The notes under the pieces: generated by a model
Told to the model about the DNA's origin: nothing
Seen by the model: the letters and a program-made list of their open reading frames with translations, nothing else
Databases searched by the model: none
From: Candidatus Saccharimonadales bacterium
Lineage (GTDB): Bacteria; Patescibacteriota; Saccharimonadia; QS-5-54-17
NCBI GenBank assembly: GCA_040903985.1
Contig: JBBDUI010000002.1
Span: 262,038-326,037, forward strand
DNA: 64,000 bases
Direction: 5' to 3'
Position numbers and translations under genes: made by a program
Shown here: piece by piece, positions 2,538 through 63,577 of the stretch
Position numbering within the stretch: the first letter of the stretch is position 1
Layout: each line of letters begins with the position of its first letter

Positions 2538-3044
2538 TTAGCGAAACCACTTCTGGTACAACGCTGGCAGCTGTGCCACCTGGCGCTTAGCTGGTCGTCG
2601 CTTTGGCTTGGCTTGGGGGTGATTACTCCGTATGAAGGCCCCCCAGTGCTCCTTCAGCCACTGCTGTTGCTCATCGTAGAGTGCGACCAAACCTCGCCCC
2701 GCAAACTCTTGGCGGATTACCCCGCCGGCATGCGGATACCGGTGCTGCGTCTCCTCCGCTCCGGAGTTAAACCCGTGAGCATAGTGGCAGAGCTCGTGCA
2801 CTATCACCGACTGAACTAAGAACTCCGGTATCTCCGACTGGCGAAACCACCCATTAATTCTAATTACCGACTGGCTACTCTGCTTCGGATCGACACTGAT
2901 CGAGCCCAGCCGGCGTTTAGCCCGGCGACCGAATTCTATGCGTAGATTATTCACGCGCTCGACGTCACTAAAATAGTCACGCCAGGTACGGCTTAGTAGA
3001 TCCTCCAGCCAAGCTTGATCGCGATGTAGATTAACTTTTACCAT
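2538..3044 (-). CDS. YgjP/DUF45 (SprT-like) family metal-dependent hydrolase
   Basis: 168 aa. VIVHELCHYAHG contains an HExxH zinc motif in the DUF45/WLM-like context. Confidence 0.5.
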   Translation of the reverse strand: MVKVNLHRDQAWLEDLLSRTWRDYFSDVERVNNLRIEFGRRAKRRLGSISVDPKQSSQSVIRINGWFRQSEIPEFLVQSVIVHELCHYAHGFNSGAEETQHRYPHAGGVIRQEFAGRGLVALYDEQQQWLKEHWGAFIRSNHPQAKPKRRPAKRQVAQLPALYQKWFR

Positions 3045-3331
3045 TCCCCTACTCTACACTTTTTTATGAATTCTAGCAGTCGATTTAGTGCCACTCAGAC
3101 GAAACGAACACACTAGCGTGCCAACCGAAAATCATCGATTTTCATCCTTAAATTCCAACTAGCCAAATATGGCTAGTTAGCTAAGACTGTATTTAAAACA
3201 ATAAATCCAGTATTCGATCGATTTAGGGTCAATACACACCGCTAATAGCGACGGACTTGATGGGCATGTCTCAGAGCTATAACAGATAGTTCGTAGTTAT
3301 AATTACTACGCTATTTTCAGGATATCCTGCA

Positions 3332-4930
3332 CTACATCGTTTTACGAGGCGACACACCCATAAGGGCGAAGTAAGTCTCGAAAACCTGCTCCAATTGAGC
3401 CAGGAAGTAGAGCTTTTCTGCCGCTTTTGCGGGCGGCAAATCGATGATCTTCTCCTGCTCATACCAGTCGTGAAATAACCGGGCCAATTCCTGTCCGAAG
3501 AAAGTTAACTTATGCACTTCGTAGGTGCGAGCGATAGTCCCTAGAAGCTCCGGCAGTTCCGCTACTTGGCGCACAATAGCCTGCTCACCAGCACTAAGCT
3601 CACCCAGTGCTGAACCTGGCTTCAACTGCTGCTCAGCCGCCTTATTATTAATCGCCTGCAGGCGTACATATGCATACATTACGTACCAAAACGGGTTCTT
3701 CTGACTCTGTTCAGCCGCCAAATCAAGGTCGAAATCCATATGCGTGTCGTTACTGCGCATCAACATAAACCAGCGGGCCACATCTGTTCCGACCCGCTCT
3801 ACCAACTCATCTACCGTTACATAAGTCCCGGCTCGTTTACTGATCTTAAACTCCCGTCCGTCTTTAATTAGCCGCACCCACTGAACAATGAGAAACTCGA
3901 TCTCTTTCCCTGTAAATAGCTGATTAACTGTCAACTTCAGTGATGGGACCTGACCAGCGTGATCCGCCCCCCATACCTTTATCGCGCGATCAAACTCACG
4001 GTTAACGAAAACATCGTGATGGTAGGCGATATCGTTAGCCAAATAGGTTAGGTCACCGCTAGATTTAATCAACACTCGATCACGTTCATCGCCAAAAACA
4101 GTACTCTTAAGCCATAAAGCACCCTCGCGCTCCTCTAATAAGCCTTGGGAGTCCAGCTGTTGTCGGATGCCATCGAACTCCGTGCTAATAACTCGTTCGT
4201 TAGTAAAACGATCGAAAGTGATATTAGCGGCGGCTAGGGCCGGTTTAATGTAGGTGTCAAAGATATGGTTGGTGAGCAAAATCCCTTCTTCTACTGGGGT
4301 AGACTCAACTAAACCAGCGATCTGGTGGCGCAGCTTAGGGTGCTGGGCCACTTCCTGCATATACTCTCCCCTATAAGGGGTGTCGTCGTCCACCTTGTCT
4401 GTGACATGAGCAGTATAACTCTCCAGCAGCTTGCCGATCTGGGTGCCGGCATCATTAAAGTAGTACTCCCGTGTCACCTCATACCCCTGAGAAGTAAGGA
4501 CATTGCTCAATACATCACCGATAAAGCCGCCGCGCGCATTCCCTAGGGTCAAGGGACCGGTCGGGTTAGCAGAAATGTATTCGACTTGAACTTTCTCCCC
4601 GCTACCCCTGTTACTACGGGCAAAGTTATCATCGATAGCCACAAAATAATCCCGCCAGTAAGGCTCAGACAGGCGGAGATTGATGAAGCCTGGTGCCGCT
4701 GCTTCGGCTTGGGTGATATTCTGGTCGACTAGCTCGAGTGCTAACTCTTCCGCAATCGCTAGCGGCGAGCGACCCAGTTCTTTAGCCAGCTGAAAAGCGA
4801 TATTAGTAGCATAATCTCCCTGCTCGGCAGGTGGCAACGCTATATCTACCCCTGTTATATCAAGATCATAGCACTCTTTGACCCGCTGCCGGATAGTTGT
4901 TTGTAGGCTCTCTCTTATGCTCATTACCAT
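3332..4930 (-). CDS. argS: Arginine--tRNA ligase
   Basis: 532 aa. ISANPTGPLTLGNARGG is the class I HIGH-region equivalent of ArgRS. The C-terminal KISKRAG resembles the KMSK motif. Length is typical. Confidence 0.9.
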   Translation of the reverse strand: MVMSIRESLQTTIRQRVKECYDLDITGVDIALPPAEQGDYATNIAFQLAKELGRSPLAIAEELALELVDQNITQAEAAAPGFINLRLSEPYWRDYFVAIDDNFARSNRGSGEKVQVEYISANPTGPLTLGNARGGFIGDVLSNVLTSQGYEVTREYYFNDAGTQIGKLLESYTAHVTDKVDDDTPYRGEYMQEVAQHPKLRHQIAGLVESTPVEEGILLTNHIFDTYIKPALAAANITFDRFTNERVISTEFDGIRQQLDSQGLLEEREGALWLKSTVFGDERDRVLIKSSGDLTYLANDIAYHHDVFVNREFDRAIKVWGADHAGQVPSLKLTVNQLFTGKEIEFLIVQWVRLIKDGREFKISKRAGTYVTVDELVERVGTDVARWFMLMRSNDTHMDFDLDLAAEQSQKNPFWYVMYAYVRLQAINNKAAEQQLKPGSALGELSAGEQAIVRQVAELPELLGTIARTYEVHKLTFFGQELARLFHDWYEQEKIIDLPPAKAAEKLYFLAQLEQVFETYFALMGVSPRKTM

Positions 4931-10629: not shown

Positions 10630-10830
10630 TGTGCCCTCCGTTGATTATATAACTTACTATTTATAAGCAAACACTTTGCTCTTAGCTCAAAAGTAAAATT
10701 GTTTACCATCAGTAATGTTTTAAGGGTACCATATTATGGGAATCGTTTATCTTTCTGCTCGCTCATGGTTCGCCTGCGGCTCACTCAAAGTATCCTAAAG
10801 CTGCCGCTGTCAGCTTTAGACCTCGCGGGC

Positions 10831-10900
10831 GCGATTCCCCTCTCGAAAACTAAACCAATGAAAAAGCCCGACTATGGTCGGGCACTTTCATTGGTGGAGC
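10831..10900. repeat. Direct repeat R3. It is a roughly 85%-identical copy of the tmRNA 3' terminus (gctccacca), the terminator hairpin and about 37 nt of downstream flank.
   Basis: Hand-aligned to 12601..12672 with about 60 of 70 identical positions. It contains the same AATGAAAAAGCCCGAC...GTCGGGCACTTTCATT hairpin. Confidence 0.7.
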
Positions 10901-11118: not shown

Positions 11119-12321
11119 TTAGCTTGCTATAAATCTCTTAATCCTAGAGACAACGTAATCCCTAATTAGTTGTTCTGACTGGCTAATTAGGTCCTTGTAC
11201 TCAGCCTTTTCGGTTGATGTTGCCTTACTGTAGCCATGAATTTCAATTTTGCCGTGAATGACTTCGTGTCTAGCATTAAACAGCTTCTCTATGTGCTTTA
11301 TGCAATTTTCTCTATCGGACTCGGTTTTTGAAATAGTCTCAGCTATTACAGGTGCCTTTTCGCTAATCGTCGGTACGATATTACTATTTGTTATACTGTG
11401 TTTCCTAGTTGGGAATAGTGAATCAACTACCGATACCAGAAAAACTAGTTGTAGGCTCCAATCTTCATTATTCAAGAACTCTAGGTACCAATAGAGAGCA
11501 TTACATAATTGAATCCGTGCATTTTCTTTATTTTTTGCAGATTGTTTTTTTGAAATATCCTTAAACAATGAATTTACGGCATTAATTCTATCCTTATCGT
11601 TCTTGAAAGAAAGCGTCGTAGCTCTAGAGGCTTTTAGCGGATTTTTGAAGTTTGAATTATATTTGTCATCTAACTTAAATACTCTCGGAGTGGGGGAATG
11701 TCTCCTAATACTATTTGTTGCGAGTGTGCCGAATACGACATGTAGCGAATAATAAAGTCCTACTAATCTATCTGGACTGTAATTTGATTCTAGAAATGCG
11801 TATTCTCCAGTCCTAACAAGACCTTTATCTTCAATGTAGAGGTACTTCTCGCCAACTTTAGGTATGTTATCGCCAAACATCTGCTCTCTCAAAGCTTTGG
11901 CAAGTCCCTGACCCTTAACTTCATTTTTACTTTTGAATTGGTTAAATCTTTTCTGGTCAACCTCAATTATCTTAATGCTATCAAGATCTTGCAGGCCACC
12001 ACAATAATCATCAGGTAATTGGTAATAAAATTTATAAATATAAGGAATTCCTGAAGCCAGCTTATGTATATCAGTTATGACTTTATCTTTTTCGGCAGCA
12101 GTCATGGCTCTAGATTCACGGTTAAAATCACTGACTTTGAAAGCACTTGTGATAAGCATGTTCCAGAAAAACGGCCAATCAATTGCCGAATCATAAAGCT
12201 TCAAATCCACTATCTTATATAGCGGGTCAAAATTAATTGTGTCCACATCTATAAAGCCATCATTTAGCTTAGCGTTGGATAAACTATTCTTTAGTAATAC
12301 TTCTGGATTCTGTCTGGCCAT
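11119..12321 (-). CDS. Hypothetical protein, island cargo. It may be an Abi-like protein with a C-terminal HEPN-like R-x4-H motif (NARHEVIHG).
   Basis: 400-aa ORF in AT-rich DNA bracketed by tmRNA-end repeats. The functional call rests only on the motif and the context. Confidence 0.5.
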   Translation of the reverse strand: MARQNPEVLLKNSLSNAKLNDGFIDVDTINFDPLYKIVDLKLYDSAIDWPFFWNMLITSAFKVSDFNRESRAMTAAEKDKVITDIHKLASGIPYIYKFYYQLPDDYCGGLQDLDSIKIIEVDQKRFNQFKSKNEVKGQGLAKALREQMFGDNIPKVGEKYLYIEDKGLVRTGEYAFLESNYSPDRLVGLYYSLHVVFGTLATNSIRRHSPTPRVFKLDDKYNSNFKNPLKASRATTLSFKNDKDRINAVNSLFKDISKKQSAKNKENARIQLCNALYWYLEFLNNEDWSLQLVFLVSVVDSLFPTRKHSITNSNIVPTISEKAPVIAETISKTESDRENCIKHIEKLFNARHEVIHGKIEIHGYSKATSTEKAEYKDLISQSEQLIRDYVVSRIKRFIAS

Positions 12322-12511: not shown

Positions 12512-12629
12512 CGTATCATATTATGCTCGCTCGAAATGCGTTTCTCGCTCGGCCAAGCAAGGAATTCTTAAGCTGCCACCGGCAGCTTAAGCCCTCTCGG
12601 GTGCAATTCCCCACCACAAAACTAAACCA

Positions 12630-12663
12630 ATGAAAAAGCCCGACTATCGTCGGGCACTTTCAT
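12630..12663 (-). terminator. Rho-independent terminator immediately after the tmRNA CCA end
   Basis: On the minus strand it reads AUGAAAGUGCCCGAC-GAUA-GUCGGGCUUUUUCAUU, a GC stem followed by a U5 run. Confidence 0.75.
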
Positions 12664-13076
12664 TGGTGGAGCTGCGGGGAATTGCACCCCGGTCCGCAAG
12701 TTAACTTCCTATCCCGCTACGAGCGTATTCGGTTTGAAAAGTTTCAGATATTTCCCGATCAAACCGACAAAAAAGAACTATCTATAGTCACAGTAAAGCT
12801 TCAGGCGGTTCGCCTCTGACGTACGAACTGCCCTACACCGGATAAATGTCACCAGATTTCCGTTATCCAGTAATCACGGAATTGATGGCTGCGGCGGTTA
12901 GGCTACAGCTGTCGCAAGGTTTCGAGGAGTCATAGCCTCAGAAACTGAAGCTAGAAAACTGTTCACCTTACTAGTAAATGTGTTTACATTTATTTGGGTT
13001 GGTCCAACTAACGTGTAGACCGAACCGGCTCGCTGAATAGGTTGTCAAAATACTCACGTCGAAGCTAATCAGCCCC
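12664..13076 (-). ncRNA. ssrA: tmRNA (SsrA), standard one-piece form, about 413 nt
   Basis: The 5' end GGGGCUGAUUAGCUUCGACG... matches the E. coli 5' end (GGGGCUGAUUCUGGAUUCGACGGG). The 3' end ...CGGGGUGCAAUUCCCCGCAGCUCCACCA gives a T-arm and an acceptor strand with the G3·U70 alanine identity pair. An internal tag frame ends ...GCG ACA GCU GUA GCC UAA. Confidence 0.85.
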
Positions 13077-18950: not shown

Positions 18951-18973
18951 ATAAATTTCATAAATTAGCCATT

Positions 18974-19001
18974 AAAAAACTCCGGATTTCCGGAGTTTTT
19001 T
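18974..19001. terminator. Bidirectional rho-independent terminator (AAAAAACTCCGGA-TT-TCCGGAGTTTTTT)
   Basis: Perfect 7-bp stem flanked by an A-run and a T-run. It terminates rplT on the plus strand and abuts the RNase P RNA 3' end on the minus strand. Confidence 0.7.
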
Positions 19002-19237
19002 AATGCAAGATCGCCTGTAAGCCGGATTCTGTTTGCTTAAACGCCCGTTGCCGAGCGTGAAGCAAGATGACTATCTCTCTAGTCCCGCGATTGCTCGTGG
19101 GATCAAGCGGGTAAAATATGTTTGCCACCGCCTGGGCTAAGCGTATGGTGACTCACTCCTTGCAGCGGACGGGGTTTACCTCCTGCCGATGTCACCACCG
19201 GTAGCTGTGGGCTCTTACCCCACTCCTTTCACCCTTA

Positions 19238-19367
19238 CCCCGCACCTGAAAATGATAGTGCTGGCGCACAAATGTAACCTCATACCAACCATATAACAGG
19301 GGTGATTATACCTTTACTGTTGCACGGAAGTTGATGATTGCAAGATCAATCATTTTCAGGTGCGGGG
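19238..19367. mobile_element. Miniature (non-coding) copy of the TIR element. It has 19-bp perfect terminal inverted repeats CCCCGCACCTGAAAATGAT / ATCATTTTCAGGTGCGGGG and sits at the P12 position of rnpB.
   Basis: The TIRs are identical to those of the GIY-YIG element 90 bp away. The 92-bp interior has no ORF. Confidence 0.7.
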
Positions 19368-19453
19368 CGGTATCGTTTCTGTGGCACTTTCCCTAAGGTC
19401 TCCCTCGGTTGTCGTTAACAACCGTCCTGCCCATGCGCTGTCCGGACTTTCCT

Positions 19454-19752
19454 CCCCGCACCTGAAAATGCTAACCAAAGCCGAGCCTCTTCTTCAGCTC
19501 TACAAGTCCTCGACCATAACGTTTGAGCTTACGCTCTCGTTCTTGAGCCAAGGCTTTGGTTGTAAAAGCCTCATAGTAGACAAGCTCCCAGGGTACACCA
19601 CTCTTTGTGGACGTATTCATACCTTGGTTATGTTGATGAAATCGCCGTTTCAAATCTGCCGTAGATCCGATATAGAACGTACCTGTCTTTTTACTGCGCA
19701 AGAGGTAGACATAATACATAGCGATTTCATCATAGCATTTTCAGGTGCGGGG
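19454..19752. mobile_element. TIR-bounded GIY-YIG element (299 bp). It has 20-bp perfect TIRs CCCCGCACCTGAAAATGCTA / TAGCATTTTCAGGTGCGGGG and sits at the P3 position of rnpB.
   Basis: The perfect 20-bp inverted repeats enclose one 82-aa GIY-YIG ORF. The ORF stop codon lies inside the TIR. Homologous elements are at 63276..63577 and (miniature) 19238..19367. Confidence 0.75.
19471..19719 (-). CDS. GIY-YIG nuclease-family protein (YhbQ/COG2827-like, 82 aa) encoded inside the TIR element
   Basis: MYYVYLLRSKKTGTFYIGSTADLKRRFHQHNQG... has the GIY...YIG motifs and a conserved R and H/N, as in E. coli YhbQ. It is on the same strand as rnpB. Confidence 0.75.
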   Translation of the reverse strand: MYYVYLLRSKKTGTFYIGSTADLKRRFHQHNQGMNTSTKSGVPWELVYYEAFTTKALAQERERKLKRYGRGLVELKKRLGFG

Positions 19753-19794
19753 CAGCCATCCAGCGATCTTGCAAGGGAAAATTATAGGCTAGAG

Positions 19795-20490
19795 CTAGCC
19801 GTTTTGCAACTTAGCTTCTTCGTCTAGAATGATGTTCACCTGCTCATCAGCTAAGGTGTTATGTTCGCGGTATACATGCCTGAAAGTCACATTCCCGATC
19901 TCCTCGGCCAACACCTTGATCGAATTATATACCGGCCATAATTCCTTATTTTTCACCTTGAATATGCCATTTAACTGGTTAGCTACTAGTAAACTATCCA
20001 TACAGAAGTCGATAGCAGTGGGCTTAAACTTCCGAGCAGCCTCCAGGGCGTGTTTGACTGCTTGGTATTCGGCCTGATTGTTAGTAGTTATACCGAGATA
20101 CTGGCCGCCCTGCTCTAGGAGCTTGTCCTCATTTTCAGTTAAGATGACGAAGCCGCTAGCCGACGGACCGGGGTTTCCGCGAGAACCACCATCGGAATAA
20201 ATTCTAAGTTTCGTAGTATTTTCTACACTGTTTTCAGTAGTAACTGAATTTTTATTTAAAGCGGGCTCAATATTTTGTCGGGACTGTAAAGCCGTTAGAG
20301 CATCACGCCAAACATCCTTACTCTCACGGCTTTTTGATATAAGCTCTTTCGATCCATCCGGATGCAGGCCATAGATGTGGTGGCCTTTTTTGATGATGGC
20401 TATCCCCTGCTGCAAGGCCGCTAGTGCGACCGTTTCCCGTTTGGTATGTGTTGGTTTTGCGGCTGACATCTGTCTCATTATATCAGACAC
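19795..20490 (-). CDS. rnhA: Ribonuclease HI with an N-terminal extension
   Basis: IYSDGGSRGNPGPSASGFVI...NNQAEYQAV...CMDSLLVANQ...HVYREHNTLAD matches the RNase H DEDD catalytic-residue pattern. The stop is about 19 nt from the RNase P RNA 5' end. Confidence 0.8.
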   Translation of the reverse strand: MSDIMRQMSAAKPTHTKRETVALAALQQGIAIIKKGHHIYGLHPDGSKELISKSRESKDVWRDALTALQSRQNIEPALNKNSVTTENSVENTTKLRIYSDGGSRGNPGPSASGFVILTENEDKLLEQGGQYLGITTNNQAEYQAVKHALEAARKFKPTAIDFCMDSLLVANQLNGIFKVKNKELWPVYNSIKVLAEEIGNVTFRHVYREHNTLADEQVNIILDEEAKLQNG

Positions 20491-35529: not shown

Positions 35530-35664
35530 GCGTCAATCACCAGTTAATTGTAGATGAGAGTGGGTCAGCATACAATTAACAAGCTCATATATAGTAACAA
35601 CAATGCTATATCGAGGGCAATTGCCCTCGATATAGCATTAAATATATACTGATACGGATCACTT

Positions 35665-62901: not shown

Positions 62902-63250
62902 CATCCTCATCCTCCTTATCCTTATCCTTAGTCTCTCGCTTATCCTCCCGCACCTCTTCTTCCGCTGGTGGTTCATAAACCACCACCTGGTGGCGTAAGA
63001 CCTCATCGCTAAGACGTAAAGCTCGCTCTAACTCGGCCACTTTGCTCGTATCGAGGTCGATTACAAAGAATAAATAGACGGCAAAGGTCTGATTCTTAAT
63101 CGGATAAGCTAGCTTACGCTTGCCCCAGTTATCACGTTTCACTACCTTCGCATCGACGCCATTTAGAATGTCGTCCAGCCGCTTAAGTGGTGCCTCGAGA
63201 TCGATCTCGAGATCCGGATGCAGTAAAACTGCTATTTCGTATTGGTTCAT
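62894..63250 (-). CDS. rpsF: 30S ribosomal protein S6
   Basis: MNQYEIAVLLHPDLEIDL... is canonical S6 with an acidic C-tail. A GAGAGGAG RBS is present. The start was set at the internal Met. Confidence 0.85.
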   Translation of the reverse strand: MNQYEIAVLLHPDLEIDLEAPLKRLDDILNGVDAKVVKRDNWGKRKLAYPIKNQTFAVYLFFVIDLDTSKVAELERALRLSDEVLRHQVVVYEPPAEEEVREDKRETKDKDKEDEDGA

Positions 63251-63275: not shown

Positions 63276-63577
63276 CCCCGCACTTGAAAACGTTAACGAA
63301 AGCCAAGCCGTTTCTTGAGCTCGACTAAACCACGACCGTAACGCTTTAGTTCGCGTTCTCGCTCTAAAGCCAGGGCTTTCGATGGGAACGCTTCGTAATA
63401 GACGAGCTCCCATGGAATGCCACTCTTAGTCGCTTTACTGCGACCTAGGTTGTGTTGTTTGAATCGCTGCTTGAGATCTGCCGTGGAGCCGATATAAAAA
63501 GACTCATCTTTCTGACTCTGCAACAGGTACACAATAGTACATGAAGCGATTCTAACATAACGTTTTCAGGTGCGGGG
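63276..63577. mobile_element. Third copy of the TIR-bounded GIY-YIG element (302 bp). Its TIRs are CCCCGCACTTGAAAACGTTA / TAACGTTTTCAGGTGCGGGG, and it sits 26 bp upstream of the rpsF start.
   Basis: The 20-bp TIRs have one T/C difference and are homologous to the TIRs in rnpB. The element encloses a homologous 79-aa GIY-YIG ORF whose stop codon again lies inside the TIR. Confidence 0.7.
63293..63532 (-). CDS. GIY-YIG nuclease-family protein (YhbQ/COG2827-like), about three-quarters identical by eye to the copy at 19471..19719
   Basis: (V)YLLQSQKDESFYIGSTADLKQRFKQHNLG...RYGRGLVELKKRLGF. It has an apparent GTG start. A 1-nt indel relative to copy A removes the MYY N-terminus. Confidence 0.65.
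   Translation of the reverse strand: MYLLQSQKDESFYIGSTADLKQRFKQHNLGRSKATKSGIPWELVYYEAFPSKALALERERELKRYGRGLVELKKRLGFR

Follow-up and report, generated by a model that had tools for sequence, protein, structure and literature searches.

A 64,000-nucleotide stretch of DNA from a Saccharibacteria genome (CPR; a MAG), referred to here as the window, contains three related units that we read, with a probability of roughly 60%, as members of a widespread family of selfish, IVS-like 'helix-cap' cassettes of ~300 bp that encode an 82-aa predicted GIY-YIG nuclease of the SLX1/UPF0213 type. The window holds a full cassette (A) at helix P3 of RNase P RNA, an ORF-less miniature at P12 and a partly decayed cassette (B) in the rpsF leader. 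Architecturally the cassettes are the same as the intervening sequences (IVSs) of bacterial rRNA, of which they are a nuclease-bearing relative. As we picture the element, a terminal helix of 13–30 bp with the base 5' (A)CCCnGCACC ... GGTGCnGGG(U) 3' would enclose a stand-alone GIY-YIG gene, and the cassette would take the apical-hairpin position of a peripheral stable-RNA helix, in the sense orientation. The host RNA could still fold, because the cassette helix would substitute for the native one.

Three units in the window and the rnpB gene

The earlier note on this DNA described three loci with the same termini, and these were recovered. Searching for CCCCGCACCTGAAAAYG with at most two mismatches returned six sites, at 19238(+), 19351(-), 19454(+), 19736(-), 63276(+) and 63561(-), compared with 0.03 expected from shuffles; six were attained in 0 of 100 shuffles. 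This count, together with the occurrence of the loci in an independent Logan assembly, rules out a chance repeat or an assembly artefact. The units and their arms are as follows.

19454..19752, minus strand: full cassette A, in place of helix P3 of RNase P RNA
19454-19473 / 19733-19752: arms of cassette A, 20 nt, 100% complementary (inverted-repeat search)
19238..19367, minus strand: ORF-less miniature of 130 nt that lengthens helix P12 of RNase P RNA (P12 loop by cmscan)
19238-19265 / 19340-19367: arms of the miniature, 28 nt, 86% complementary
63276..63577, minus strand: full cassette B, co-oriented with the rpsF-ssb-rpsR operon and lying in its leader
63276-63295 / 63558-63577: arms of cassette B, 20 nt, 95% (19/20) complementary

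The stem strands of the cassette are CCCCGCACC and GGTGCGGGG; in the RNA sense, 19733-19752 is the 5' arm of cassette A and 19454-19473 is the 3' arm. Homology between cassettes A and B ends on both sides exactly at CCCCGC / GCGGGG, and the differences between their arms are compensatory changes. The start of S6, the rpsF product, lies downstream of cassette B at 63250. The miniature folds with an energy of -54.4 kcal/mol (z = -7.0), and its arms match those of cassette A exactly. The interiors of the miniature and the full copies share only chance 7-8-mers, so common ancestry is shown for the termini only, and an origin of the miniature by internal deletion of cassette A was rejected. The view of the 130-bp unit as an ORF-less, MITE-like derivative is thus upheld by its matching termini but not by its interior, where no resemblance to the full copies could be detected. 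An ATG inside one arm, which had been ascribed to both full copies, is present in cassette A and in the miniature, out of frame and followed by a stop after two codons; cassette B has ACG. Sequence inspection found no target-site duplication at any of the three units, as had been noted, and Rfam 15 gave no match inside the cassette at gathering score or at E <= 10.

Cassette A and the miniature lie inside rnpB, where they stand in for P3 and P12. The elements that define the gene are listed below.

~19004..19773, minus strand: rnpB, RNase P RNA of bacterial type A, ~770 nt with two insertions inside
19762-19773 pairing with 19004-19015, minus strand: P1 of rnpB
19754-19760 pairing with 19066-19072, minus strand: P2 of rnpB
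19781..19809, minus strand: sigma-70-type promoter of rnpB, TTGCAA-17-TATAAT (promoter scan, 10/12 matches)
18970..19005, minus strand: intrinsic terminator directly 3' of the P1 3' strand, a 16-bp stem and then a T run

The RF00010 match in cmscan (202 bits) extends across 19002-19492 and forces P1–P3 with many mismatches; the genuine 5' portion of the RNase P RNA is upstream of the GIY-YIG unit at 19454-19752. Across seven genomes, compensatory changes occur in 9 of the 12 P1 pairs and in all 7 P2 pairs, and 96% of the P1 and P2 cells are paired, a value reached by 0 of 500 shuffles. Cassette A is placed within rnpB because this covariation spans it; the promoter and terminator bracket 19004-19773, with 7 nt between the end of the -10 box and the first P1 base. 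The P4 sequence GAGGAAAGUCC adjoins the 3' arm of cassette A, an arrangement that recurs in 11 other genomes. The RNase P RNAs of three relatives fall below the gathering cut-off of cmscan. The rnpB context of the units at 19238-19367 and 19454-19752 had been missed in the earlier note.

The GIY-YIG genes

Both full cassettes enclose GIY-YIG genes, previously described as homologous and about three-quarters identical; their proteins are 77-78% identical, and the proposed Pfam comparison gave PF01541 scores of 65.7 (gene A) and 62.2 (gene B) bits against a cut-off of 22.6. Both stop codons lie inside the TIR, as had been observed.

19471..19719, minus strand: GIY-YIG gene A, 82 aa, full length (Pfam PF01541, E = 4.7e-18)
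63293..63532, minus strand: GIY-YIG gene B, 79 aa from GTG 63532 (Pfam PF01541, E = 6e-17)
19471-19473 (TAG, gene A) and 63293-63295 (TAA, gene B), minus strand: stop codons within the 3' arm
19724..19732, minus strand: extended -10-like box TGATGAAAT, 4 nt upstream of the gene A ATG
63549-63557, minus strand: box retained at cassette B, TGTTAGAAT

Alignment and translation reveal a 1-nt insertion in gene B after the ancestral ATG-TAC-TAT (63542-63534), and gene B is open only from GTG 63532 because this insertion puts the ancestral ATG (63540-63542) out of frame. Five residues are invariant in 40 relatives (Y16, G18, R26, N31 and E62) and three more are at least 90% conserved (Y3, Y5 and H30). 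Protein A carries all of the conserved motif residues, whereas protein B lacks its first three amino acids through the frameshift. The closest solved relatives are UPF0213 BH0048 (1zg2, 1.7e-10), 1ywl (1.6e-6) and SLX1 (6e-6 to 1e-4), with a weaker match to I-TevI (0.002). On these similarities, the cassette protein is a predicted nuclease of the UPF0213/YhbQ-SLX1 branch of the GIY-YIG superfamily.

The comparison of gene A with gene B and with its counterpart in one relative (L003) gave pN of 0.12-0.14 and pS of 0.78-0.80, quoted as raw values in place of dN/dS because the Jukes-Cantor correction is unusable at pS >= 0.75. These values, with the invariant catalytic-motif residues, show that the ORF is under purifying selection. 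The dN/dS check that had been proposed between the two copies therefore yields a sign of selection (pN 0.14), with synonymous sites that are saturated (pS 0.80). Because of this saturation, the window copies are not recent transpositions; they are ancient, and this genome gives no sign that they moved recently.

The motif T[GA]nT[AG]nnAT stands 6-7 nt ahead of the ATG in 18 loci and is found within 24 nt upstream in 23 of 82 loci, compared with 2.2% of control windows; an SD-like 4-mer occurs in only 9 of 82. The gene A box TGATGAAAT is probably the gene's own promoter, one that would give rise to a leaderless mRNA.

The family in other genomes and its mobility

The comparison set comprised 80 homologues in other genomes, a sample picked by gene presence. 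A search for the arms in these genomes, as earlier suggested, showed the hairpin base CCCnGCACC / GGTGCnGGG to be conserved in 50 of the 80. Flanking inverted repeats score at least 12 in 50/80 (shuffled controls, 8-13), and the stems of 50 elements have a median length of 20 bp (range 13-30). Stable RNAs host 31 of the 80 homologues (RNase P RNA, 13; 16S, 7; 23S, 11), and every one of the 31 is oriented in sense with the host RNA. Within RNase P RNA the positions taken are P3, P9, P12 and P15-17, where apical hairpins are replaced. The 16S positions (E. coli numbering) are ~65-100 (h6), ~180-207 and ~452 (h17), and those in 23S are h25, h45 and near E. coli ~272, ~1360 and ~1706. Twelve genomes, drawn from several CPR phyla, have P3 occupied. 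Members also occur in the leader of an r-protein gene, in tRNA spacers and, as in-frame insertions, in prepilin leaders. Overall, at least 12 different insertion sites with unrelated flanks are used, and one 12-20-nt arm sequence is found again and again at places that are not homologous (P3, P12, the rpsF leader, 16S, 23S and pilin leaders).

Mismatches in the stems of RNA hosts are of the G·U type in 21 cases and of the A·C type in 1 (P = 1e-5), a bias that argues for maintenance of the repeats in these hosts as RNA helices and to which strand-asymmetric mutation could contribute. Outside RNA-helix hosts, including in prepilin leaders, the arms are still complementary (G·U type, 5; A·C type, 4). 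Complementarity kept without a G·U bias, where no RNA helix is needed, speaks for a classical cut-and-paste or copy-paste DNA transposon, a reading that we consider unlikely; the GIY-YIG protein would then be a transposase that binds and cleaves the TIRs, the 130-bp unit and the solo hairpins would be MITEs, and RNA genes would simply be where insertions survive. The same reading can draw on termini that are conserved across phyla and unrelated sites, on several genomes with ORF-less units whose arms match the resident ORF copy, and on the short direct repeats GGGTTTAC that flank the insert at pilin-leader sites. However, selection that keeps the G|FT cleavage site intact can account for those repeats, and among the RNA-gene sites examined, as at the window units, target-site duplications are absent: only the pilin-leader sites show GGGTTTAC, confounded there by coding constraint. 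Sense orientation in 31 of 31 RNA-gene elements is not required of an element that moves at the DNA level, near-identical copies are absent (pS 0.80), and the sole ORF is an 82-aa GIY-YIG domain, with no DDE, HUH, Ser or Tyr transposase. GIY-YIG enzymes hydrolyse DNA, and we know of no strand-transfer or rejoining activity among them.

Use of the P3, 23S h25 and ~272 sites in several phyla each is the pattern that would favour a conventional site-specific homing endonuclease, which would recognize its own uninterrupted site and convert empty alleles after horizontal transfer, as happens with the LAGLIDADG genes in rRNA introns of CPR bacteria. The GIY-YIG fold is known from homing endonucleases, and the near-palindrome is split by the ORF much as homing genes split their targets. 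This reading nevertheless seems to us very improbable. The protein is a catalytic domain of ~80 aa without a DNA-binding domain and is closer to SLX1/UPF0213 than to I-TevI; the sites number at least 12, with unrelated flanks; no group I or II ribozyme core surrounds the ORF (Rfam, E <= 10); and in a neighbour-joining tree of the 80-aa protein, in which resolution is weak, sequences group by host taxon and not by site. Tsurumaki et al. voice the same doubt about the rRNA cases (PMC11270868).

The frequency of P3 occupancy bears on a further alternative, that the family is not mobile at all: P3 and P12 would be lineage-specific expansions of native helices, and the GIY-YIG gene a domesticated YhbQ-like repair nuclease, nested in rnpB for its expression and inherited vertically. 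Strong purifying selection, the saturated divergence between copies and the occupancy of P3 in 12 genomes of several CPR phyla fit such a history, and Lui et al. (2021, PMC8172020) report that helix extensions are frequent in the RNase P RNAs of CPR bacteria. Nevertheless, we regard it as improbable, given that a single arm sequence recurs at P3, P12, the rpsF leader, 16S, 23S and pilin leaders. In two genomes (L012 and L061) P3 is short and normal, and the cassette lies in P9 or P15-17. Occupancy of P12 is patchy: the unit is present in three and missing from five related RNase P RNAs, with an orthologous insertion in L003 and L017 and a short native P12 in L006, L008, L010, L020 and L024. 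None of the rpsF loci of 80 relatives has a GIY-YIG gene or arms; these loci came from a metagenome scan in which S6 was only 47-56% identical, so the result describes absence in relatives and not strain-level polymorphism. Finally, different hairpins cap two helices in a pair of 23S genes that are 91% identical (L013 and L011). The repeats are host-gene helices, but not the native conserved ones that the earlier note had named as grounds for giving up its proposal. Because P3 is so commonly occupied in the sampled Saccharibacteria and other CPR, the P3 cassette itself may have a long history of vertical inheritance, or even benefit its host.

The mobility of the helix-cap cassettes is further supported, at the level of sequence comparison, by extra arm copies at the same loci that match the resident cassette (26, compared with 1.6 expected) and by solo or miniature hairpins in L013, L017, L020, L024, L046 and L063, in addition to the window P12 unit. 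The presence/absence comparison that had been called for thus gives differences between relatives (P12, rpsF and L013/L011), those at rpsF falling short of strain-level polymorphism. No phage matches to the cassette were found. A plasmid vector was rejected: the megaplasmid genes are at most 43% identical and of chromosomal type only.

The proposal of a new TIR-delimited GIY-YIG mobile element consequently holds for the recurrent family, the inverted repeats, the non-homologous sites, the ORF-less derivatives and the presence/absence differences between relatives; it does not hold for the architecture of a classical TIR transposon. The architecture is that of an IVS, because the P3 and P12 units and their relatives lie almost exclusively in sense at the apexes of stable-RNA helices.

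Relation to known systems and a possible mechanism

Known 23S rRNA IVSs lie at helices 25/45 in Salmonella and helix 45 in Coxiella burnetii, and in C. burnetii the IVS ends in a 28-bp stem, holds an ORF in its loop and is cut by RNase III (PMC4990558). Like these, the cassettes replace the apical hairpin of a variable stable-RNA helix, and their terminal inverted repeats pair into a stem of 20-30 bp whose loop may hold an ORF. Both groups have a sporadic distribution and are viewed as selfish; family members sit at exactly helix 25 (L021, L057 and L076) and helix 45 (L072). The cassettes differ in that their ORF encodes a GIY-YIG protein, whereas that of IVSs encodes the S23p four-helix-bundle protein. 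The window copies occupy RNase P RNA and an mRNA leader rather than 23S, although relatives occupy h25/h45, and hosts of the family extend to RNase P RNA, 16S, tRNA spacers and the leaders of an r-protein gene and of prepilins. All cassette sites have one conserved stem sequence in common, and the ORF copy is found together with solo or miniature hairpins.

The view that nothing of this kind had been described was overstated, as GIY-YIG ORFs are reported in non-intron insertions of CPR rRNA genes by Tsurumaki et al. (2024, PMC11270868), where Brown et al. (2015) are cited for GIY-YIG-encoding CPR rRNA insertions and Saccharibacteria rRNA genes are given as exceptions without insertions. Protein family, bacterial radiation and the lack of group I/II intron features are common to both sets, and the rRNA-located cassettes are very probably the same elements. 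The searched text of that paper records only the presence of the ORFs, and the terms inverted repeat, hairpin and RNase P are absent from it. What was known before is thus the ORFs in CPR rRNA insertions; the literature searched yielded nothing else on the element, and no report of the shared hairpin, of the miniatures, of RNase P occupancy or of RNase P RNA as host to any protein-coding insertion.

Invasive palindromic or MITE-like repeats include the palindromic elements of Rickettsia, the Correia elements of Neisseria, and the GC clusters (for yeast, PMC4478555) and double-hairpin elements of mitochondria. As with the cassettes, these are short hairpin modules tolerated inside RNA or protein genes, co-transcribed, sometimes processed by RNase III, and present in many copies with matching ends. 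We know of no enzyme encoded by any of these repeat families. Unlike such repeats, the cassette family has an autonomous partner, a nuclease gene with the same ends. HEARO and IS605-IS200 (TnpA-TnpB/IscB) elements likewise have a small nuclease gene between or beside ends that fold into hairpins, but the cassette has neither a HUH transposase nor a RuvC/HNH guide-RNA nuclease, shows no HEARO or IS605 RNA match in Rfam, and differs in chemistry and insertion logic. Archaeal rRNA bulge-helix-bulge introns carry homing endonuclease ORFs and resemble the cassettes as stem-bounded, ORF-bearing rRNA insertions that rely on host enzymes and not on a ribozyme. The cassette stems are continuous helices without the bulge-helix-bulge motif, and an intron of this kind is ruled out.

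We infer a mechanism for the helix-cap cassettes as follows. The GIY-YIG gene would be expressed from its own extended -10 box, and the long helix would be tolerated, or trimmed by RNase III in the manner of classical IVSs. The structure-specific nuclease may act at the arms by cutting hairpin or palindromic DNA, after which repair would copy a resident cassette with the ~20-bp arms as homology, leading to spread or homogenization of copies. For RecA-dependent copying 20 bp of homology is short, which counts against arm-templated copying. A bolder and more tentative reading, possible but one that we hold with less than even confidence, is that hairpin helix-cap cassettes and their solo-hairpin satellites form a new class of mobile element, mobilized by its own structure-specific nuclease of the SLX1/YhbQ type and persisting only at sites where the host either puts up with the insertion or takes it out once it has been expressed. 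Such sites would be the apexes of stable-RNA helices, the tRNA spacers that RNase P/Z cut, and the prepilin leader peptide, which prepilin peptidase cuts off.

If that reading is true, the elements would be a non-self-splicing counterpart of introns and inteins, with removal outsourced to the host. The origin and mobility of rRNA IVSs have been debated since 1990, and an element-encoded nuclease linked to these long-unexplained insertions is a candidate engine for them. The IVS class would extend to RNase P RNA, an essential ribozyme, and cassette insertion offers an explanation for why CPR RNase P RNA is often mis-annotated, truncated or below threshold. For UPF0213/YhbQ, an uncharacterized protein family, the cassettes provide a concrete functional hypothesis, and a cultured carrier, Methylotuvimicrobium sp. 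KM1 (NZ_CP173170, 23S helix 25), makes the predictions open to experiment.

Repeat-bounded GIY-YIG units in the window

Six copies of the 17-mer CCCCGCACCTGAAAAYG, against 0.03 expected, are present in the window and form three inward-facing pairs that delimit two larger units, referred to here as cassettes A and B, and a 130-nt unit that lacks an ORF.

Terminal inverted repeats (arms) of the three units
19454-19473 and 19733-19752: arms of cassette A, 20 nt, 100% complementary
63276-63295 and 63558-63577: arms of cassette B, 20 nt, 95% complementary
19238-19265 and 19340-19367: arms of the 130-nt unit, 28 nt, 86% complementary

Each larger unit encloses a minus-strand GIY-YIG ORF (PF01541; E = 4.7e-18 for A and 6e-17 for B), which together with the six arms confirms, with small corrections, the repeat-bounded GIY-YIG units claimed in the earlier note. 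Similarity between A and B is bounded exactly by CCCCGC and GCGGGG; the stop codons of both ORFs lie inside the 3′ arm and the window units have no target-site duplication, both as the note had described. The 130-nt unit had been read as a miniature of the full copies; it has the same arms, but its interior has no detectable sequence in common with them. No additional GIY-YIG copies were found in the window by tblastn. Copy B carries a 1-nt insertion directly 3′ of the ancestral ATG-TAC-TAT and thus retains only a 79-aa ORF that starts at GTG.

Relatives of the GIY-YIG protein number more than 500, and Saccharibacteria and other Patescibacteria supply the closest. The low pN relative to pS, both between copies A and B (pS 0.80, saturated; pN 0.14) and between copy A and its orthologue in helix P3 of the RNase P RNA of another genome, L003 (pS 0.78; pN 0.12), indicates long purifying selection on the protein. 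Despite the age of the window copies, their arms have stayed nearly identical. The cassette protein consists of the catalytic domain alone, the GIY-YIG motif residues do not vary among 40 relatives, and a PDB profile search ranks UPF0213 (1zg2, 1.7e-10) and SLX1 structure-specific endonucleases above I-TevI. Only 9 of 82 ORFs are preceded by a Shine-Dalgarno-like 4-mer. An extended -10-like box, T[G/A]nT[A/G]nnAT, lies at most 24 nt upstream of the ATG at 23 of 82 loci, compared with 2.2% of control windows, and is 6–7 nt from the ATG in 18 of these 23; nearly all members of the Saccharibacteria clade have it, both window copies among them. We infer an internal promoter that would give a leaderless mRNA of the GIY-YIG gene.

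Elsewhere in the window, a 115-nt direct repeat (10786-10900 and 12558-12672; 85% identical) surrounds 1.77 kb with one 400-aa ORF (11119-12321, minus strand), and the tmRNA gene (12664-13076) is overlapped at its 3′ end by the second repeat copy; the segment looks like a small island inserted beside the tmRNA. The tag peptide that ARAGORN predicts for this tmRNA, VNTFTSKVNSFLASVSEAMTPRNLATAVA, is unusually long at 29 residues, and the tag region holds a large unaligned insert in the Rfam alignment. A perfect 38-nt palindrome (35602-35639; AATGCTATATCGAGGGCAA/TTGCCCTCGATATAGCATT) lies between divergent tRNA-Asp and tRNA-Thr genes.

RNase P RNA and other hosts of the cassette

The minus strand at 19002-19492 matches the Rfam model of bacterial type A RNase P RNA (202 bits). 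In the Rfam alignment the 130-nt unit is a ~100-nt insertion in the P12 loop, and P3 takes its 3′ strand from the 3′ arm of cassette A, which adjoins GAGGAAAGUCC (P4) directly. The search program, cmscan, failed to span the 299-nt cassette and made a poor P1–P3 from ORF sequence; the true 5′ portion of the RNA lies upstream of cassette A. In an alignment of seven cassette-bearing RNase P RNAs (A3), with each cassette interior replaced by GAAA, the segment immediately preceding the cassette forms pairs with the 3′-terminal part of the RNA, with both-sided changes in 9 of 12 pairs of P1 and 7 of 7 of P2. Paired cells amount to 96% in P1/P2 versus 37–45% with the partner slid, and 0 of 500 shuffles reached the observed values.

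Signals bounding rnpB
19809-19781 (minus strand): promoter TTGCAA-17-TATAAT, ending 7 nt before P1
19005-18970 (minus strand): intrinsic terminator after the P1 3′ strand

The P1/P2 pairing, promoter and terminator together define an rnpB of ~770 nt (~19004-19773), of which the two insertions make up ~400 nt. GIY-YIG ORF A has the same sense as the ribozyme, and cassette B lies in sense 25 nt upstream of the rpsF start. Directly upstream of rnpB, a 231-aa ORF with an RNase H / RVT_3 domain (19795-20490) overlaps the rnpB promoter with its 3′ end.

A scan of one genome per species yielded at least 569 loci with homologues, and the best 80 were examined. Flanking inverted repeats scored at least 12 in 50 of the 80 (shuffled controls, 8–13), with a conserved outer motif: the 5′ arm has (A)CCC[C/A][G/T/C]CAC[C]TTT and the 3′ arm the complement. 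Further in, the arms vary with compensatory changes (median stem, 20 bp). The geometry is constant: the ATG usually lies ~30–40 nt past the point where the 5′ arm begins, and the ORF stops at or within the 3′ arm. According to Rfam, 31 of the 80 lie inside stable RNA genes, always on the strand of the RNA: 13 in RNase P RNA (three below the gathering score), 7 in 16S and 11 in 23S rRNA. When mapped on E. coli rRNA and the Rfam model, the cassette is seen to take the place of apical hairpins.

Insertion sites in stable RNAs
RNase P RNA: P3 (12 genomes including the window), P9 (L012), P12, P15-17 arm (L061)
16S rRNA (E. coli positions): ~65-100 (h6), ~180-207, ~452 (h17)
23S rRNA: helix 25, helix 45, and E. 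coli positions ~272, ~1360, ~1706

In 23S rRNA, helices 25 and 45 are the classic locations of bacterial intervening sequences (IVSs). A cultured gammaproteobacterium outside the Patescibacteria radiation (CPR), Methylotuvimicrobium sp. KM1 (NZ_CP173170; locus L076), is also a carrier; its helix 25 is replaced by a composite (2848-3369) with four arm copies, in the order CCCCGCACCTAAATT, ~70 nt, AATTTAGGTGCGGGG, ORF, CCCCGCACCTAAATT, ~70 nt, AATTTAGGTGCGGGG, so that two ORF-less hairpins flank the gene. Three RNase P RNAs with a P3 cassette (L017, L033, L058) score 76–99 bits against a gathering score of 100, and standard annotation would therefore miss them. In L005 (2915-3450) and L004, which have the same flanks, the cassette lies 10–15 nt downstream of a TTGACA-18-TATACT promoter in a ~400-nt ORF-free stretch with no Rfam match. 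The stretch may be an unannotated non-coding RNA of Saccharibacteria with the element in its 5′ hairpin.

At seven loci (L015, L022, L025, L040, L041, L051, L062; ~3001-3300 in most) the GIY-YIG ORF precedes a type IV prepilin in an in-frame fusion, and Pfam detects the N_methyl motif in five. Here the 3′ arm, ...GGTG[C/A]GGGG TTT ACC, codes for the G|FT(L)IE cleavage site, and arm pairs without an ORF (solo hairpins) also occur in frame in the leader (L051; GGGTTTAC, 42 nt, GGGTTTAC). Judging from these sequences, prepilin peptidase would strip the whole insert from the mature pilin. Repeat-less homologues occupy tRNA operons on the tRNA strand (L030, L035, L053, L064, L066, L067, L071, L074, L075), where the ORF either stops 1–25 nt short of a tRNA 5′ end or has its ATG 2–26 nt past a tRNA 3′ end, a placement from which RNase P/Z processing would free the ORF RNA.

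Helix maintenance and probable turnover

Non-Watson–Crick stem positions of elements in RNA genes are G·U-type in 21 cases and A·C-type in 1 (P = 1e-5), versus 5 and 4 in other contexts, where complementarity is still 97%. This bias is the mark of selection acting on the sense transcript, and the stem thus works as an RNA helix in those hosts that require one. Upkeep of the stem outside RNA genes suggests that it is also intrinsic to the element.

Occupancy is patchy: the window, L003 and L017 have the P12 unit, and five related RNase P RNAs lack it, their P12 being native and short. L012 and L061 have an ordinary short P3 with the cassette elsewhere in the ribozyme. Among 80 related rpsF loci, none carries the GIY-YIG gene or the arms. 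Extra copies of a locus's own arm number 26 versus 1.6 expected, and include three solo hairpins of 27–28 nt in the L013 23S, others in RNase P RNA (L024, L063) and miniatures of ~100–120 nt (L017, L046). Arms match within a genome and differ between genomes (CACCTGAAA at all three window sites, CACCCTT in L017, CACATAA in L024). Two helices are capped by different hairpin families in L011 and L013, of which the 23S rRNAs are 91% identical, and a weakly resolved protein tree groups by host taxon, not insertion site. Taken together, these observations argue for turnover, with intragenomic copying or homogenisation; they speak against a helix that is strictly native, and equally against classical site-specific homing. 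The earlier interpretation as a new mobile element delimited by terminal repeats is partly supported.

The second, unrelated family in L011 caps the 23S helices at ~272 and ~1706 (E. coli) and reads CCT[T/C]GTCCGTAGGAC[A/G]AGGAATTACCAAA..., then A/T-rich repeats; the same helices in L013 carry GIY-YIG-type solo hairpins.

Relation to intervening sequences and proposed mechanism

The IVSs of Coxiella, Salmonella and Leptospira, the terminal repeats of which form a stem cut by RNase III (PMC4990558), follow the same logic of a stem in place of an apical hairpin. For CPR rRNA genes, insertions that are not introns but carry GIY-YIG ORFs are on record, and were judged not to conform to homing (PMC11270868). 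The words inverted repeat, hairpin and RNase P do not occur in that paper, which counts the rRNA genes of Saccharibacteria among the exceptions, free of insertions. Lui et al. reported diverged CPR RNase P RNAs with extended helices and described no ORF (PMC8172020). Searches of full text from non-subscription journals turned up neither a GIY-YIG gene within RNase P RNA nor the conserved hairpin. We therefore class the finding as an IVS-type insertion, distinguished by its nuclease gene, a common terminal helix, its satellites and its new hosts.

The cassette helix stands in for a dispensable apical hairpin of the host RNA, and this substitution for a native hairpin makes insertion structurally neutral. 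The stem may be trimmed or tolerated. The SLX1-like nuclease may have as its substrate the hairpin or palindromic DNA that the arms form, and break repair would copy a resident cassette or homogenise arms, with the ~20-bp arms as homology. We give roughly one chance in three to a further reading, a mobile element that persists only at sites where it is masked by processing or tolerance on the part of the host, the in-frame insertions in prepilin leaders included.
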